64,000 nt of DNA from IMG/VR virus record IMGVR_UViG_3300045988_025287, positions 1 to 64,000 of that record. One strand, 5' to 3'. Source of the DNA: a virus. The position numbers and the translations under genes are program-made. The notes below the pieces were generated by a model. The model was not told where the DNA came from. It worked only from the letters and a program-made list of their open reading frames with translations, and searched no databases. Below are positions 29,313 to 58,973 of this stretch, piece after piece; positions within the stretch are counted from its first letter, which is position 1, and the number at the start of each line of letters is the position of its first letter.

Positions 29313-32300
29313 TTAAAACATATATGCTTCGATATTATCTATAGCTTCGTCGTCACGAAACCATTCTTGAGTAAATATAGGGCCTTCAAACAGTACCCTA
29401 TTTCTATTCTCTTTTTTAATCTCTTTTACTTTAACATTATATAGCTATTCTCTATATATCATTACTTGGGTCAACGCCATTACACGGTCTACGTTAACTA
29501 CATCATTTGCAGCTATAAGTTCCTCTAATAGCGGTTCCGACATTATATTGTATAAGTTCTTCTTGCCATCTGCATTAATATCGTTTAGCCAATCCTTTAT
29601 TAGACCCCAACCCCATTGCTTAATTTGCTTATTCATGTGGCAGCCCTTCTTTCTATTTACTTTAGAATTACTTACTATATCATTGATTATATCTGGTTGA
29701 TCAGCAAGTAAGTAGTCACAATGCTTATTAGTAAAGTAAACAAATATACCCTTATTTTGATTCTCATACATAGCTCTAGCATTGTAGTATATAAGCAATT
29801 TACGCACATTTTCGTAGAAATCTTCTGCTGATTTAGGTCTACCAGTATACTCCGCTACTATGATATCTGAGTACTACTCTATAGACTATACTCTTTTATA
29901 TATGAAACAAGAACCTAATGATGTAGTACTTGATTCGTCATAATCATATGAGTCTATACCTGCAATATATAAACCAACACTAGCATCTTTATTAGGATGT
30001 TCCCATATTACTATAGATCCAGTAGGATCATCGCCTATTAATGCTCCAGTAACTTCATCGCGTTTAGTTCTCAAAGGGTAGTGTGTTATATCTCCAGTTT
30101 TTTTAATAACCCATTTAAGGCTACCATCCGGTTGCCATACTAAATCACCTACCTATTTATGATTCTATAATTTTTTGTTAGTCCTAAGTAACGCTAACTG
30201 CTCTTGCAATTCTTTTTTGGGAAAAATGTTACCATTAAACTCTAACATTGCTTCTGCTGGAGTAATAGGTCTTTCTGCAACGTATCTATCAACCGCTGCG
30301 TTATTAGTAGCATTAGTTATTACTACTTGCCTTTCTGCTAATATGTGTTCTAAAGACTTCTTACGGTATGTATTACCGTCCTCATCCATATATATACGTT
30401 TACCATTTTCATCACGTATATCTAAGTTAGTATATTGAGGTACAAAGAAACCGCATTTATTAGTAGTAGCAGACTCATCCCATATGTTATCAAACCCTAA
30501 ACAATTATATCCATCAGGGTTATAGAACATATCCTTCATAGTCTCAAATGCAGAATTATGAGTAATAATTCCATTTACAAGATAAGTATGAGTATTTCCA
30601 GCAGTTATATTATAAATAGTTTTTGCCCCTACATTTTCAATGTTTACTATTTTCTCATAATAAAATCCTCTATCTTTTTGTAAAGATTTTTGATTTTCAT
30701 AGTATTTAGCGGCCTATTCTAATCTTTTCTATTTGTACTTGACTAGAAATTTTATGTTTTTATGAAAATTAATAATGCTATCCCTATCATGAATATCTAA
30801 AGAGTAATATACACTGTTCTAATTTTCACAAACACTATTTCTAGATGGTTTTTTATTTACTTTATAAATATAACCCCTTATTCCTAATTTCTATAAAAGA
30901 TATAACACCTATTTTAATAGTTCTTCACTACTCTATGTAAGGTTTATTATAGTAGAATACTTATTACGTTTTTTATAATATATTGTGGAAACACAACCAT
31001 CAGTATCATATAATCCTCCTAAAAGTTCAGTTATACTACTTTTATCACAGGTGTTAATAATTTCTGGTAATCGTTTATTTGTTTTTGTTTGTCCAGATAT
31101 ACCTAATTTGTTTATATCATATTTAGCTTTACGAACTCTTAATTCTTTTAATATTCTACCGTCTTTAGTAGTATAACTACCAGTTGTAACACATGGGTAT
31201 AAGTTTTCAATGAACGATTGAATTTCAACATCACATGAAGTTAGTCTAACAGAAGAATTATTCATGTAAGAACCATCCCCAATAAATATACCTATTGCTC
31301 TAGCATTATTAATAGAATCCTATCCAAAGTATGGTATACTTTTTGCTATTGCTACATAATTACCTATTACTAATTCTTGTGCCTAATGCCAATCGAATTT
31401 TAAACAATCGTTGTAATCTTTTTCATTACTGCTAAGAATAGGATGATCTATACTACACTCAATTGTTCTTCCTGAGTTAGTAGTAAGCTTAATGCATTCT
31501 TTTTTGCTAGGTATATTTATAAAATTAATAGGTTCCTCAGTGACTATTTTATTATTATTGTCATATCCTACTAACTTATCCTTTTTGGTAATATCTTTTA
31601 TAGATAATTGTCTACCGTCACTAGTATATACTAGATTGTCTTCTGTAATACAGCCTTCATCACCACCAGTACCCCATACTATCATAGTACCAAAGGCTAT
31701 ACCATCTACCTCTACAGAAGGTCTAGCGATTTGCCATGCTGCTCCTAATTCAGAGAAAGAACCACCTTCCTCAAACATAATAAGGTTAGCTTTCTTACCA
31801 CGTACTACATCAGGATTATCTTTCAAAGTAACACCTATAATTTCTGACTTATAACCTAATTCTATGATATTACCATAGTCATCCTTAGTATAGAATCCAG
31901 CACGTCTACGCATCTAAGTGTTAACTGATCTCTTCTTACCCCACGCAGTATTCTTATCTATAAAGTCCATATAATCCCAAGCTTTAGTAAGAATACCATC
32001 ATCTGTCAAATACTATTTATTTGATGCATATATGAAGGTTTTAGAGTATGGTATTAGATAGAAATTACGACATGCCATAGAACCGCCTTTGTATGAGAAA
32101 CCCTTACGTCTAGACTTAAGTAAGCATAAGTGTTTGCCCTATTCTTGAGCCTCCTATACTGCATTAAAATAGTAATAATCATAATCCCAGAAGTCAGGAA
32201 ATGTCACCTCATTAACACGCTTTACTTTAGTCTTTCCAAACTCATCTGTAGTAATATGATTGACTATACGGGATATAGGACAATAGTTTAAATAAAAATA

Positions 32301-32492
32301 GTTATACCCACTAATGAAATCCCCATCATCAGCTGTATAACCATCTACACATCTTTTACTTTCCTCATCCCAGAACTTAAAATATTCTGAAGTACCTTCT
32401 GGATATACGCAATAAGAACCAGTAGCTATAAACTATAGTGCTGGCCCTCTAAATTTATTACTATTTACTATCTTCTTATTGAAGTCTACCAT
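29313..32492 (-). CDS. terL: Terminase large subunit including a 366-aa intein (693-aa mature extein), about 18 TAG
   Basis: Six track ORFs share one frame. All gaps were walked and contain only TAG. TAA at 29313. Extein motifs: FPDFWDYDYYYF, KANLIMFEEGG (Walker B-like), LYIAGIDSYDYD (nuclease). Confidence 0.85.
30555..31652 (-). mobile_element. Intein with LAGLIDADG homing endonuclease inside TerL
   Basis: N-junction GTGGDEG|CITEDNLVY. LAGLIDADG blocks IGIFIGDGSY and LLGGLYDTDGCV. C-junction THTYLVNGIITHN|SAFE. 1098 nt, in frame. Confidence 0.8.
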
Positions 32493-32500
32493 TCTTGTTC

Positions 32501-32659
32501 TTACTATTTGATGAGATTATTTAAAGCTTCTTTTATAGTTTTTCCTGTTTGTTTCTCTAATTCTCCCAACGCCATATTCCACATTTCCAGATTAATTGAA
32601 TACTCATCAAGTTCGTTCTGCATAAAAAAAGTTACATTCTTACCTCTAAGTTTATCCAT
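32501..32659 (-). CDS. Small ORF upstream of TerL, 52 aa (penultimate codon TAG)
   Basis: MDKLRGKNVTFFMQNELDEYSINLEMWNMALGELEKQTGKTIKEALNNLIK-TAG-TAA. Ends 9 nt before the TerL ATG. Confidence 0.4.
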
Positions 32660-32674
32660 ATTAGTACGCTTTAT

Positions 32675-32708
32675 ATTTAAAAGGGGCGCGTTTCACAACG
32701 AACCCCTT
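32675..32708 (-). terminator. Intrinsic terminator-like hairpin (minus strand)
   Basis: Minus-strand AAGGGG-16 nt-CCCCTT followed by TTAAAT. Lies between the structured tract and the small ORF/TerL. Confidence 0.5.
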
Positions 32709-33264
32709 CCATTCAAATGATATTTATATGTTTTTTAACAGAAATTGGGGAGATTTCTGTAGCTGTAACCTAGTTTCTTGAGCTAGGGATTTATACGCCG
32801 TATATTTAGTACTCCCCACCTGGGCTAACGTTTACCCCAGACTACCTGTTCACGATAACTACCTATCCAACAAGTTTCCTTCTGCTATTATAGTTTCAAA
32901 GGACTGGTATTTTAAATTAGTAGTCCCTGTAGGTATCGATCCCACTCCTCCCGGGTTCATGCTACTCTTACTTTTACATAAGCCTTCTCAGTGAGAAGTT
33001 GTAGTCTGGACTATTTCATGACCATATTCTACTAGAACTTAGGCCTCTCCCGTATAGTCTCTACGCCATTTATCAGCAGATGCTGAATTTAGTAAGCCAT
33101 CGCCAAAGTAATATCGCTATTACGAGGTTTCTGTTTGTTAGAGAGATTTTTCAATACATATTTCTACGTAAAGCTCCTACCTAAAAGAGCCGGGCGCGCT
33201 AGCCAGTACGCAAAGGGACAGTGCACGTGGATATTCTTACCCTCCACGTAAGGGTTCTGATGGT
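32709..33264 (-). ncRNA. ORF-free structured tract (about 556 nt), candidate ncRNA or leader of the packaging operon
   Basis: No minus-strand ORF. GC-richer than flanks. Helices at 33225-33231/33243-33249 and 32738-32745/32753-32760. The loop of the second helix (CTCCCCA) is complementary to GGGGAG at 32812-32817. Confidence 0.45.
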
Positions 33265-45821: not shown

Positions 45822-46211
45822 GACTAGACCTTCTTTTTAGTTAATATTAGAGTCTAGTATACTCAGTCTGTGAAGATAGAGTATACGTCCTCAGAAAATG
45901 ACAAACATGTGGGGCGGGAGTAAATAAGTAAAACTAAGCAGTAGTATTATATATCAGTAAGGATACTACGCCGAATCTGATTGTTTTGTTTATTTATAGT
46001 CGTGCGGACGTTAAAATCATGTACTCCAATAAGATTTAGTTTGACAGCTATTTCTGCTTACGAGTTAAAACTATAGTGAGAGTCATAGTAAGTAACGATT
46101 GTAGTCGTTTATCTTTGTCTTATAACAAATGCTATAAACTAAGTTGGCACTAACTTAATTAAATCCTGAGTGCCCAGGCGTCATTATTAACAATTTAAAT
46201 TTTTTAGAAAC
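45822..46211. ncRNA. ORF-free tract (about 390 nt) with the shared GTGCGGACGTTAAAATCA box
   Basis: No ORF in the track. Box at 46002-46019 is 17/18 identical to 44092-44109. GGAGTAAA motif at about 45917. Confidence 0.35.
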
Positions 46212-46442
46212 ATGAAAAAGATTGGAGATTTTTTATTTGTAGAGCAATGCTTTACAGATACTGAAGAAACAAAAACTGCGGTAGTCAATATTAATTATAT
46301 TGACAGCATAACTCAGAGCTGCAATGACAAACTTGGAGACATTGTAGTCATAGAGACAGATAATACAAGAATTATCTGTAAAGATCCAGAGAATTTCTTT
46401 ACTGAGTTTGAGAATCTAATTTCAGATGAAGAAGAATGGTAG
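46212..46442 (+). CDS. Hypothetical protein, 76 aa (TAG stop, TAA 3 codons later)
   Basis: Track ORF. Confidence 0.5.
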   Translation: MKKIGDFLFVEQCFTDTEETKTAVVNINYIDSITQSCNDKLGDIVVIETDNTRIICKDPENFFTEFENLISDEEEW

Positions 46443-46699
46443 TCAATAAAGTAAAAGAGGGCCGTAAATTAACTGAAATAAAGTTCAGTAACGACCACTA
46501 TCTCGCAAATCTATTAGCTACTACTAAAGTACTTGGCATATCGTTAGAACGAGCTAAAAAGCTATGTAGAACAGTACCAGGTAAGAGAGTAGAAGTTAAT
46601 CCACCTATTGAAATTATCAGTAAGTTAAATACTGATAAATTATTTGAAGAATTAGAGGAGTATGAAATAGAAGTATCTATTAGTATTCCCAGTAAATAA
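46436..46699 (+). CDS. Second L7/L12 C-terminal-domain-like protein, 87 aa
   Basis: HYLANLLATTKVLGISLERAKKLCRTVP...LFEELEEYEIEVSI follows the same pattern as 43561..43989. Confidence 0.4.
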   Translation: MVVNKVKEGRKLTEIKFSNDHYLANLLATTKVLGISLERAKKLCRTVPGKRVEVNPPIEIISKLNTDKLFEELEEYEIEVSISIPSK

Positions 46700-46716
46700 C
46701 TTATCAAAAGTAAAAC

Positions 46717-47184
46717 ATGAAAGCAATTGTTATTTCATTTGAAGGAGCTATAAAAGACGATAATATCTTTGCATCATTATTAGCTTCTTTTGTAGAGAAA
46801 CATGTAAACACTGAATCTGTAAATATCCATATTTTATCAGATATAGATGTAACAAATGCGCTAATAGCTAAGTGCTTAATTCCATCTGCTATAACAGTAG
46901 ACAGACCATCTAATCCGCAAATACCAGTAGTAGAAGATTTCTGTAAGAAGATTGTTTCATCTATTGGTTCACCCGCACTTAAAACACGAGAATTGTTAAA
47001 CTCAGAACTATGCAAGTTCTTAGTACAACAAAATCGTGAAGTTATTAGTGTTCCAGTAAGTATTATTGCTAAAGTAAATACTACTTCTGCGTATTACGAA
47101 CATCGCAAGGTACTAAAGGAATACGGTTTATCTGCATTACCTGAGTTATTACGCGATATTAACCCTCTATTTAAATTTTACTAG
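46717..47184 (+). CDS. Hypothetical protein, 155 aa (TAG stop, TAA 5 codons later)
   Basis: Track ORF. The antisense track ORF 46704..47015 is rejected. Confidence 0.5.
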   Translation: MKAIVISFEGAIKDDNIFASLLASFVEKHVNTESVNIHILSDIDVTNALIAKCLIPSAITVDRPSNPQIPVVEDFCKKIVSSIGSPALKTRELLNSELCKFLVQQNREVISVPVSIIAKVNTTSAYYEHRKVLKEYGLSALPELLRDINPLFKFY

Positions 47185-47185
47185 T

Positions 47186-47284
47186 ATGGCAAAGAAGAAT
47201 AATGAAGAGCCTCCAAAGGAATTTAAAAAGAAGCCAAAACATAAAAAGATGGAGCCCTATAATCGTAAGAAAGCATGGAAATAG
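47186..47284 (+). CDS. Small basic ORF, 32 aa
   Basis: MAKKNNEEPPKEFKKKPKHKKMEPYNRKKAWK. Below the track threshold. Confidence 0.25.
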   Translation: MAKKNNEEPPKEFKKKPKHKKMEPYNRKKAWK

Positions 47285-47421
47285 ATAATAATTGTCCTAC
47301 ACTTGATAATCATATCAACTGTAGTGAATGTACTCATGAGTGTAAACTCAGAATGCAACCAAAGAATAGTAAAGAAGTAGAGGTTCCGCCAGAGCCTCTA
47401 CTTAATACTATATATTACTAA
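47275..47421 (+). CDS. Small Cys-rich ORF, 48 aa
   Basis: MEIDNNCPTLDNHINCSECTHECKL... TAA stop. Below the track threshold. Confidence 0.3.
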   Translation: MEIDNNCPTLDNHINCSECTHECKLRMQPKNSKEVEVPPEPLLNTIYY

Positions 47422-47663
47422 TTTAAATTGTTAGTAAAATGGTGGATTCAGTCAACCCAAAGAACTGTTTAAGACTAGAACCCTAATGGAAATTGTCAAT
47501 CAAGAGTACAATGGACTATACAACGGTCAACCACATTATATGTAGGTCAGGAGAAGGCAGGGAGTCTCCTGTTGAATAAGAAGTACAAATAGACAGGAAC
47601 AGTTCTTTTTAATTATTACTTAAATTTACTAAAAGATATGAGTAAAACAAAAAACAAATTAAA

Positions 47664-47891
47664 ATGTCATATTATATGACCAATATAATTATTACTCCTA
47701 CTTTATATGAGGAGAAAAGATTAGAAGCTATATCATACTTTAGCAGATGTAGTAGAGAAGCAGCACTAAGAATCCACAAAAAGAACAAATATAAAGATAT
47801 TAAATTGAAGCTAAACACTATAGCAGTAGCTATAATCGAGGCTAAAAAGAGATATTTTGATGATTGTTCTTTTATTAAGATTATATTATAG
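47664..47891 (+). CDS. Hypothetical protein, 75 aa (TAG stop, TAA 1 codon later)
   Basis: Track ORF. Confidence 0.45.
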   Translation: MSYYMTNIIITPTLYEEKRLEAISYFSRCSREAALRIHKKNKYKDIKLKLNTIAVAIIEAKKRYFDDCSFIKIIL

Positions 47892-47935
47892 TGTTAAATA
47901 AATTTTATTGTTAAATCAATTAAACTGTATTCAAA

Positions 47936-48403
47936 ATGGCAGAAGTAAAGAAAATGAACATCCTTATAGAGGATGTAAATGGAGAAAACATCCAGGATGT
48001 AATCGCTAATTCAAGTAAGGTAACTGAAGAAATTGCAGAAGAAGCAGCAAAGAAAATTGCTGAACGACGCAAAGAAAAGTTAACGAAAGATTTAGTAGCT
48101 GTTGTTCAGAAGAGCGAATATACGGTATCCTCAGCGGTACTACAAGTTCGTCGTTCTAACAGAACAAACCAACGTATTAAACAGTACCTAAAAGATCTTG
48201 CTACACTGAAAGAAGAGATTGTAAGTGGAAAGAAACCTGTATCTGCATGGAAAGAGGAAGCTTATAATCTAAAGAAACAGTACGACAAGGATCTTATTGA
48301 GATTGGAAAGGATATCGACAAGTCCTTAAATGAACTTAACGAACTCTTTCCAGACTCTTGGCAGTGGAGATACGATGATTTAGTTCCTAATACTAATAGA
48401 TAA
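47936..48403 (+). CDS. Hypothetical protein, 155 aa
   Basis: Track ORF, K/E-rich helical. Confidence 0.55.
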   Translation: MAEVKKMNILIEDVNGENIQDVIANSSKVTEEIAEEAAKKIAERRKEKLTKDLVAVVQKSEYTVSSAVLQVRRSNRTNQRIKQYLKDLATLKEEIVSGKKPVSAWKEEAYNLKKQYDKDLIEIGKDIDKSLNELNELFPDSWQWRYDDLVPNTNR

Positions 48404-49048
48404 CTAAATCAAAACAAATAAAAGAGGTTCCAAGCTTAGAATCTTTGAATCAATAGCTTAGTATGTGAGTCGGAAATAGTTCTTTTGAACTCTAGGGCCT
48501 GAGGCATACAAGGACCTGAATTAACAGGTCTCATACAGAATTTTAAATCAGTTATGGGGAACTACCGTGAACTACTGATCATAAGTCTGAGATCGCGACA
48601 ATAAGATTGTCCTCTAGAAATAGAGAAACGCTCTAGTCGTGACATCAAGTTTAGACTGAATAATATGAATCTTTGAATCGTTTAAAGTATCTATACTTTA
48701 ACTATTATTCGTGTATTATCAAGATCAGTATAAGAGAACTAACCATTCTCAAGACCATAGGGTATATGACTTTGGTCGGTCATATACCCACAATAGAGTA
48801 GGTATAATACCGAACTGTAAAAAGAATTGACTGTTAGGTCTATTTATGCCTTCAGGTGACCGCGGGGCAGTACCGCGCACATCCACTAAAAAAATATAAT
48901 AAGGGTGTGAAATAGTATTGAACCGTTGAAACAGAATAGAATAGGTCAATAAGCAGATAACTGGCAATACAAGTTATGTAACGGACTATACTGGTATCGC
49001 AGCGTGATAACAGAGTCCAACGGCTAAGCTAATGTCGTAGAAAGCTGG
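48404..49048 (+). ncRNA. ORF-free structured tract (about 645 nt) abutting a tRNA-like element
   Basis: 11-bp perfect hairpin GGGTATATGAC/GTCATATACCC (48760-48789). CGCGG/CCGCG helix (48861-48877). Direct repeat GAATCTTTGAATC at 48439 and 48667. The only track ORF here (minus, 48749..48967) spans the hairpins. Confidence 0.45.
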
Positions 49049-58880: not shown

Positions 58881-58951
58881 TCTCATGTAGCTCAGTGGTA
58901 GAGCCGCTACTATGTAGTGTGAACGCGTTGGTTCGAGTCCAACCATGAGAT
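58881..58951 (+). tRNA. Non-canonical tRNA-like gene; central triplet UAU (Ile-like) if it folds as a tRNA
   Basis: Good acceptor TCTCATG/CATGAGA, D arm GCTC-AGTGGTA-GAGC and T arm GTTGG-TTCGAGT-CCAAC. The anticodon region CGCTAC-TAT-GTAGTG forms a 6-bp stem with a 3-nt loop (or 4 bp plus loop ACTATGT, with C at position 33). Confidence 0.45.
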
Positions 58952-58973
58952 CTAACTTTTAAATACTTATAAT

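Follow-up and report, generated by a model that had tools for sequence, protein, structure and literature searches.

The subject of this report is a structured non-coding tract on the minus strand at positions 32675-33264 of the window, by which we mean the entire 64,000-nucleotide (nt) stretch analyzed here (positions 1 to 64,000 of IMG/VR record IMGVR_UViG_3300045988_025287). The window derives from a gut phage, a crAss-like member of the family Suoliviridae whose nearest public relatives are cr53_1 and cr115_1. Very probably, the core of the tract (33220-32921, minus strand) is an amber-suppressor tRNA gene of the phage with anticodon CUA, or tRNA(CUA), that is split by a 228-nt group I intron lacking an open reading frame (ORF). 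The identification draws on sequence anatomy, homology, covariation, and genomic context. The gene stands upstream of TerL, the first of a block of late genes in which TAG is used as a sense codon.

Organization of the tract

The initial annotation described the tract as a GC-richer, structured RNA that ends in a terminator immediately before the TerL/virion operon, and much of this description holds. The G+C content is 0.39-0.43 over 32650-33250 versus ~0.29-0.33 in both flanks, and the minus strand contains no ORF longer than 36 amino acids (aa) within 32675-33264. This structured non-coding region does end in a terminator-like hairpin just before the TerL late operon, with the TerL ATG at 32492, as proposed. 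The folding energy of the whole tract is mildly unusual (z = -2.1 for the minus strand and -1.6 for the plus strand), and it is covariation, not folding energy, that proves the structure.

Alignment of the window with cr53_1, cr56_1, and cr115_1 revealed that the tract is modular, and conservation upstream of TerL in related phages, proposed as a check, was found. In order, the modules are a hairpin common to all (33249-33225), a tRNA segment, and a module of ~230 nt that ends in the pre-TerL hairpin. The middle segment is a plain tRNA with anticodon CUA in cr53_1 and cr56_1 and occupies ~300 nt in the window and cr115_1. Taken together, these modules form a small RNA-gene cluster. The earlier idea of a single leader of ~0.6 kilobases (kb), of the lambda 6S/tR' or HK022 put type, finds no support, as ~300 nt of the tract are the intron-split tRNA(CUA) gene; the fallback offered with it, an independent non-coding RNA (ncRNA), came close. 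The features of the region, as we assign them, are:

33225-33249, minus strand: hairpin "a" (ACGUGGA, an 11-nt loop, and UCCACGU), 4 nt upstream of tRNA position 1
33186-33220, minus strand: predicted 5' exon of tRNA(CUA), comprising the acceptor 5' strand, D arm, anticodon stem 5' strand, and C32, U33, C34, and U35
32958-33185, minus strand: predicted 228-nt group I intron without an ORF, inserted between U35 and A36 of the anticodon loop
32921-32957, minus strand: predicted 3' exon of tRNA(CUA), comprising A36, A37, C38, the anticodon stem 3' strand, variable loop, T arm, acceptor 3' strand, and discriminator A
32711-32905, minus strand: element "c", a ~195-nt conserved putative non-coding RNA or leader module
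32675-32710, minus strand: terminator-like hairpin, GGAAGGGGUUCGUU-GUGA-AACGCGCCCC and then UUUUAAAU, stable in minimum free energy and centroid folds
32504-32659, minus strand: accessory ORF of 51 aa that separates the hairpin from TerL and is missing in cr53_1 and cr115_1
29313-32492, minus strand: TerL, the first TAG-recoded late gene, with 18 in-frame TAG codons and a TAA stop

In a search of Rfam, which had been suggested as a check, the only notable match is Intron_gpI, below its gathering score. A large ornate ncRNA (GOLLD/ROOL-like), a riboswitch, or another Rfam family for the entire tract was rejected, given zero matches at gathering thresholds. At E values up to 10, Intron_gpI was accompanied by three weak matches to the terminator hairpin (the Bacteroides small RNA (sRNA) BTnc060, at 26 bits versus a gathering score of 229; the Enterococcus sRNA Ref55; and the MS2 operator hairpin) and by one match to a CRISPR-DR41 repeat, on the opposite strand and inside the intron.

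The probable split suppressor tRNA gene

Up to C32-U33-C34-U35, the 5' exon can be aligned to the intronless tRNA(CUA) of cr53_1 and cr56_1, matching its 5' half. With its intron option, ARAGORN reports a split tRNA gene at 32920-33220 with a 228-nt intron. We set the splice boundaries by group I rules, which place a U that pairs with a G in P1 before the 5' site and make a G the last intron base. ARAGORN's own boundaries, which yield "Ser(cga)", were dropped because the U(-1) and omega-G rules give CUA, in agreement with the intronless homologues. Joining the exons in silico generates a 72-nt tRNA for which ARAGORN calls the anticodon cta. The predicted spliced anticodon loop is CUCUAAC (7 nt, with U33), and the predicted ligated junction joins GCCCGGCUCU to AACCCGGGAGG (in other form, GCGCCCGGCUCU to AACCCGGGAGGAG).

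Genomic context supports this assignment. An intronless tRNA(CUA) occupies the equivalent place in cr53_1, cr56_1, and the locus L045, where it is likewise flanked by hairpin a and element c. The complete cr115_1 genome, though from another subfamily, carries the module of hairpin, tRNA, intron, and element c near base-for-base as in the window. The split gene is the only suppressor candidate in that genome, and the RefSeq record leaves the region unannotated. We identified no other CUA tRNA in the 64-kb window.

Covariation supports the acceptor, D, and anticodon stems on the 5' exon side and the T arm and acceptor on the 3' exon side, where the T arm is GUGGG-AUCGAUA-CCUAC. The tertiary nucleotides U8, A14, GG, U55, C56, and A58 are present in the spliced form; position 54 is A, and positions 1 and 72 are U·U.

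Anatomy and covariation of the predicted intron

All core helices of a group I intron can be placed in the window, including the P3-P7 pseudoknot, the P4-P6 domain, P8, and P9. The predicted elements are:

33191-33186/33177-33172, minus strand: P1, with U·G at the splice site
33170-33165/33160-33155, minus strand: P2, with L2 = GAAA
33146-33141/33051-33046, minus strand: P3
33133-33126/33104-33098, minus strand: P4-P5
33123-33118/33113-33108, minus strand: P5a, with L5 = GCGA
33097-33095/33067-33065, minus strand: P6
33086-33082/33077-33073, minus strand: P6a
33059-33054/33014-33009, minus strand: P7
33045-33042/33023-33020, minus strand: P8
33005-33001/32965-32961, minus strand: P9.0
32998-32994/32988-32984, minus strand: P9a
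32982-32978/32971-32967, minus strand: P9b
32958, minus strand: omega-G, the terminal intron base

The Rfam model for group I introns (Intron_gpI, RF00028) aligns with 33195-32992 of the minus strand through P1, P2, P3, P7, and P8 (21.3 bits, E = 0.002-0.007). Using a 17-nt intron core motif as a query, we recovered 40 loci from IMG/VR, and 12 diverse intron-containing tRNA(CUA) precursors were aligned for covariation analysis. RNAalifold recovered from this alignment a cloverleaf in which the anticodon stem pairs across the intron, together with P1, P2, P4-P6, P7, P8, and P9; P3 was added to the structure by hand as the expected pseudoknot. Covariation analysis on relatives had been proposed for the tract, and over these 12 homologues it supports both the cloverleaf and the intron helices. 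Paired cells amount to 95.4%, versus 41-44% in slid controls (3' partners moved by 1-3 columns), and changes on both sides occur in 51 of the 79 pairs. The covariation score is 0.504, versus 0.07-0.11 for the slid controls, and none of 500 shuffles reached the observed values.

The signal is spread over both folds. All five pairs of the anticodon stem, which forms across the intron, covary. The P3 pseudoknot also covaries, with CUCUCC/GGAGAG replaced by UUCCG/CGGAA, UCCCC/GGGGA, and other forms. At least two pairs changed on both sides are found in each of P2, P3, P5a, P6, P6a, P8, P9a, and P9b, and in P2, P5a, and P9a this is true of every pair; each of the two short P4-P5 helices contains a single pair of this type. 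The P7 sequence (GACUAU/AUAGUC) does not vary. L2 is a GNRA tetraloop whose sequence differs between homologues, and so is L5 in 10 of the 12 sequences.

Both predicted splice sites have the expected determinants. In P1, GGCUCU precedes the 5' splice site and UUUAGGUA-GGAGCU follows it, so that U35 is paired to G; the U·G pair occurs in 12/12 homologues. The intron ends in ...GUAGCAUG, directly before AACCC, with G at 32958, and this column is G in 10/12 homologues, the exceptions being L008 and L016. The tRNA(CUA) introns of these two loci end in ...GUAGUAC before AAACCC, with either A as the terminal base or an 8-nt spliced anticodon loop (CUCUAAAC). The small size, the location in a tRNA, and the core shared with tRNA-Leu(UAA) introns provide a circumstantial case that the intron may belong to subgroup IC3.

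Several observations weigh against a functional split tRNA. The 21.3-bit score of the window intron is under the RF00028 gathering score of 50 (a threshold exceeded by the homologous L039 intron, at 56 bits), the outermost P9.0 pair is an A·C mismatch in the window, and P10 is weak, at ~3 base pairs. The tRNA is atypical, since it has A54 rather than T54 in the T loop and U·U at 1-72. We sought an intronless allele of the exact window tRNA to confirm the junction; the junction 23-mer had 0 matches, and a 17-mer matched two unrelated tRNAs. Finally, ~36 kb of the genome lie outside the window and could carry a second suppressor; the complete genome of cr115_1, however, contains none besides the split gene. 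The low score, the mismatch, and the atypical tRNA would also suit a decaying relic, in which the intron no longer splices and UAG is read via a host or other factor. We regard such decay as highly improbable, because all core helices and both splice-site determinants are intact and because the gene is shared in near-identical form by at least four independent contigs that represent different genera (the window, cr115_1, L017, and L036). Furthermore, compensatory changes across the family show selection on both folds, and the late genes of cr115_1 are TAG-rich, yet that genome has no other suppressor.

Recoded late genes and a proposed mechanism

When TAG is read as sense, all large minus-strand genes between 192 and 32492 contain in-frame TAG codons, and the genes between 33460 and 37298 contain none. 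The split tRNA gene thus lies precisely where the standard-code genes give way to the recoded late block. The TAG positions in TerL align mostly with glutamine in relatives. U1 of the tRNA is conserved in 12/12 homologues and is also typical of bacterial tRNA-Gln. From these sequence features, we predict that the tRNA(CUA) is probably charged with glutamine and reads UAG as glutamine.

Two further elements were seen in the vicinity of these genes. TerL contains an intein of ~366 aa at about 31652-30555 (minus strand; CITEDN...ITHN, then S) with a LAGLIDADG-like motif and in-frame TAG codons of its own. Upstream of the TAG-free block, a 239-aa ORF at 38188-38907 (minus strand) has 5 in-frame TAG codons if these are sense, and is either a recoded mobile-element gene or spurious.

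Expression of the late genes could proceed as follows. Once the pre-tRNA is transcribed, the intron would fold into P1-P9 about the P3-P7 pseudoknot. Exogenous guanosine would then attack after exon U35, which lies in the U·G wobble of P1 (GGCUCU before the site and ...GGAGCU after it). The terminal G (32958) would take the G-binding site, and exon ligation would restore the CUCUAAC loop and the 72-nt tRNA. This tRNA, probably charged with glutamine, would decode the in-frame UAG codons of TerL and of all downstream virion genes. Given the location of the tRNA gene at the code border, translation of the late proteins would be contingent on the ribozyme reaction, assuming the predicted splicing takes place.

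Most simply, the intron is a selfish element that is tolerated because it is competent to splice. A more elaborate possibility, which we consider unlikely, is that the self-splicing of this pre-tRNA is regulated or rate-limiting, so that an RNA-catalyzed reaction gates the switch in genetic code. If so, the UAG-rich packaging, virion, and lysis genes would be translatable only after enough tRNA(CUA) had been made, and inputs to the gate could include the GTP/Mg2+ state, co-transcriptional folding, or a phage factor. Selection for such a gate would then explain why this intron family was captured repeatedly by the suppressors of gut phages that are not related to one another (crAss-like, Lak, and others). 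Alternatively, the intron could provide protection against homing endonucleases or anticodon nucleases, to the benefit of the tRNA gene or of the tRNA itself.

Flanking RNA elements and their possible roles

The initial annotation pointed to a helix at 33225-33231/33243-33249, and ACGUGGA and UCCACGU are indeed found at these coordinates. The resulting hairpin a is present in cr53_1 and cr115_1, and relatives display compensatory stem variants (ACGUAGA/UCUACGU in 7 loci, ACGUGUA/UACACGU in 1 locus, and CAGGGA/UCCCUG in cr56_1). Because hairpin a lacks a U tract, it is not an intrinsic terminator.

Element c begins with three hairpins, continues with a helix formed by GGGGAG (32817-32812) and CUCCCC (~32751-32746) around small hairpins, and ends in an AU-rich spacer. 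It was identified in ~80 crAss-like contigs of IMG/VR, and its first ~105 nt are near-invariant in 45 unique sequences. The long-range helix and inner hairpins vary by changes from GC to GU or AU (in L045 the helix is AAGGAG/CUCCUU), and the AU-rich spacer is variable. Two structures had been proposed in this part of the tract, a hairpin at 32738-32745/32753-32760 and a pseudoknot between its loop and GGGGAG. The hairpin is present in the window and is not kept in cr53_1; the second pairing, of GGGGAG with CUCCCC, is the conserved one, with GC pairs replaced by AU or GU.

The terminator-like hairpin (32710-32679) is real and near-invariant, with 27/32 columns identical in relatives, and it also occurs upstream of TerL in cr114_1 and cr125_1. 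It is followed by UUUU and then AAAU. A strict pattern scanner, which demands an unbroken stem and five or more T within 8 positions, made no terminator call because of a stem mismatch and the short U run. Beyond the hairpin, an ORF annotated as 52 aa is present at 32659-32504, with a length of 51 aa. By tblastn it has matches at 13 related loci, nine of them full-length at 94% identity or more; a PHROG search of this ORF and the flanking small proteins produced no informative match. One sub-lineage (L045, L099, L098, L065, and related loci) carries a tRNA-Met(CAU) gene within an additional ~300 nt that separate element c from the terminator hairpin.

Two roles for these last modules were considered. 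Element c may be an independent, trans-acting sRNA of ~200-230 nt, with its own promoter or processed from a co-transcript with the tRNA, and ending at the hairpin. We regard this as possible but less likely than not. As is typical of sRNA genes, the 5' domain is near-invariant, the AU-rich spacer variable, and the terminator hairpin invariant. The module holds its position beside different tRNA types and insertions of homing-endonuclease genes. A sigma-70-like match (TTTAAA-18-TATAAT) lies at 32916-32887, directly after the tRNA. This match carries little weight, since Bacteroidota hosts use promoters that depart from the sigma-70 consensus. All matches in the sigma-70 scan were generic and AT-rich, and by eye no Bacteroides-type promoter motif (TTTG ... 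TAnnTTTG) near the tRNA, element c, or TerL was convincing. A further point against an sRNA is that element c matches no family in Rfam.

Alternatively, the tract, or element c plus the hairpin (32905-32675), could be a cis-acting leader in which the terminator is overridden in the manner of lambda Q/6S-tR' or HK022 put, switching on the TerL/virion operon. A distance of 15-30 nt separates the strongly conserved hairpin and its U run from the TerL ATG in cr53_1 and cr115_1. There is no space for a promoter between the two, so TerL transcription in these phages either crosses the hairpin or starts inside element c. The near-invariant 5' domain and the covarying long-range helix of element c are also compatible with a leader. 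Yet more than half of the tract is tRNA plus group I intron, element c again lacks an Rfam family, the conserved double stem-loop of put-like elements was not identified, and the window has the 51-aa ORF between hairpin and TerL. The tRNA-Met of L045-type loci, located between element c and the hairpin, is more easily reconciled with a cluster of RNA genes that share a terminator. On balance, antitermination control of this kind appears improbable for the tract. Only the last ~230 nt (element c and the hairpin) could still act as a leader or attenuator in cis; we speculate that CUCCCC might pair alternately with GGGGAG or with the 5' arm of the terminator.

The intron family in phages and bacteria

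Of the 40 IMG/VR loci with the 17-mer core, 39 are introns borne by tRNAs, and after application of the splice rules ~23 of these 39 are in tRNA(CUA). Most tRNA(CUA) introns are located between U35 and A36, and a second set lies between U33 and C34 with an endonuclease ORF inside the intron. The remaining tRNA loci are Leu(UAA), Lys(UUU), and Ile(UAU). Lak-B megaphages, which infect Prevotella, carry a 245-nt homologue with 77% core identity at the equivalent position in tRNA(CUA); the Lak-B1 locus is L004 2967-3284 (MK250020 at about 412.0 kb).

An invariant 19-nt core, GAAAUAGUCCAGACUACAA, corresponds to the 3' strand of P7 and the sequence after it. In species-representative bacterial genomes (GTDB) this 19-mer occurs at 84 loci, 76 of which are then followed by a tRNA-Leu(UAA) 3' exon. 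These loci (L144-L227) are mostly from Bacteroidales, including chromosome-sized contigs and many gut species. Based on the shared core, the phage intron belongs to a family that resides in the tRNA-Leu(UAA) genes of the hosts. A few GTDB matches are in metagenome-assembled genomes labeled archaeon, Methanobrevibacter, and Clostridium, and these may be mis-binned phage contigs.

The site between a 45-aa ORF and element c is highly variable across the ~80 crAss-like contigs that share element c. Its contents include an intronless tRNA(CUA), an odd tRNA(CUA) missed by ARAGORN, and the window-type intron, as well as a different, ORF-bearing group I intron between CUCU and AAC and free-standing endonuclease genes. 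The different intron, found in L142 and L117, has a core of ...ACAGACUAAAC...GCAAUAGUCG... and an internal ORF, and splits a cr53_1-type tRNA(CUA) between CUCU and AAC, indicating that the site was invaded independently.

The odd tRNA(CUA) was observed in L066, L077, and L078 at the equivalent locus. It is non-canonical, with the anticodon arm GAAAU-CUCUAAA-AUUUC, an odd D arm and T loop, and an encoded CCA, and it is undetected by ARAGORN. Such tRNAs would be a second route to "missing" suppressors. The intron-bearing contigs L018 (1110-1213) and L007 (3067-3353) also have a RAGATH-1 hammerhead ribozyme and a permuted transfer-messenger RNA (tmRNA), and genomes of the L018/L007 type generally have abundant ribozymes and tRNA arrays.

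Other RNA features in the window

A dense cluster of RNAs recognized by Rfam, all above gathering score, is present at 42625-49007 on the plus strand:

42625-42775, plus strand: RAGATH-6
42870-43092, plus strand: RAGATH-7
44016-44112, plus strand: hatchet ribozyme
45887-46022, plus strand: hatchet ribozyme
47448-47608, plus strand: RAGATH-9
48826-49007, plus strand: permuted tmRNA

In addition, ARAGORN reports a tRNA-His at 58881-58952 (plus strand; Rfam tRNA, 46 bits) with an odd anticodon, AUG at loop position 32. This tRNA may be non-canonical or mis-folded by the program.

Implications and comparison with known systems

Suppressor tRNAs were detected in only 40% of TAG-recoded genomes by Borges et al. 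(doi 10.1101/2021.08.26.457843), and Yutin et al. reported the same mismatch, with many recoded phages lacking a detectable suppressor tRNA (PMC7886860). Standard tRNA finders skip a split gene, which provides a concrete cause for a "missing" suppressor, and the RefSeq record of cr115_1 is an example. An intron-aware search could mend the annotation pipelines used for recoded phages. The window system may also be tractable for asking whether RNA catalysis times a code switch.

The phage group I introns known at the time of a 2014 review were all in protein-coding genes (PMC3984707), a generalization that the window case contradicts. In the full-text literature searched, which does not cover all journals, we found no paper reporting a phage suppressor tRNA split by a group I intron, and a prior description is possible. 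Among bacteria, tRNA group I introns comprise four classical classes, all IC3, which Williams expanded to 21 classes in a survey of bacterial and archaeal genomes only (doi 10.1101/2020.01.27.920355). Like these, the window intron is small (~200-250 nt), lacks an ORF, and lies in the anticodon loop, and it shares the P1 U·G, the omega-G, and an anticodon stem that pairs across the intron. With the tRNA-Leu(UAA) introns of Bacteroidales in particular it shares the invariant 19-nt core, linking phage tRNA introns to an intron family of the hosts. It differs in that its host gene is a phage amber-suppressor tRNA(CUA) rather than a cellular sense tRNA, that it is inserted between U35 and A36 ("4Ug") rather than between U34 and A35, and that the tRNA serves a virus-specific change in genetic code.

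"Enigmatic" tRNA introns were described in Lak megaphages by Devoto et al. in 2019 (PMC6784885). These too are within tRNA genes of TAG-recoded phages, in this case infecting Prevotella. As far as the readable part of Table S6 of that study goes, the published introns are 80-115 nt long, are inserted after position 37, have tRNA-like sequence, and have no Rfam match; unlike the window intron, they are not group I. We considered and rejected the possibility that the Lak-B1 homologue is the published Lak "Tyr(GTA)" intron, since the Table S6 elements that could be read are of a different kind; the 245-nt tRNA(CUA) intron of Lak-B1 corresponds to none of those readable entries.

The resemblance to lambda 6S/tR' with Q and to HK022 put is that a short non-coding region ends at a hairpin directly before a late operon. 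Unlike in those systems, most of the window tract is tRNA plus intron, and no qut/put-like element or Q-like context was identified in it.

A functional parallel may exist with theta ribozymes, minimal ribozymes resembling that of hepatitis delta virus (HDV) that are fused to the 3' ends of gut-phage tRNAs, of which 20% are suppressors (doi 10.1101/2023.06.13.544163). No such ribozyme was found 3' of the window tRNA: there were zero matches to HDV-family models in Rfam, the first G is 17 nt downstream, and no P1 partner was apparent by eye. In both systems a ribozyme appears to be coupled to the maturation of a suppressor tRNA in TAG-recoded gut phages, and in both it could act as a gate on the code switch at the RNA level. 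The predicted ribozyme reaction in the window would lie upstream of all late-protein synthesis, paralleling the association of theta ribozymes with suppressor tRNAs. The chemistry would differ: theta ribozymes self-cleave at the tRNA 3' end, whereas the window element is predicted to undergo two-step splicing inside the anticodon loop.

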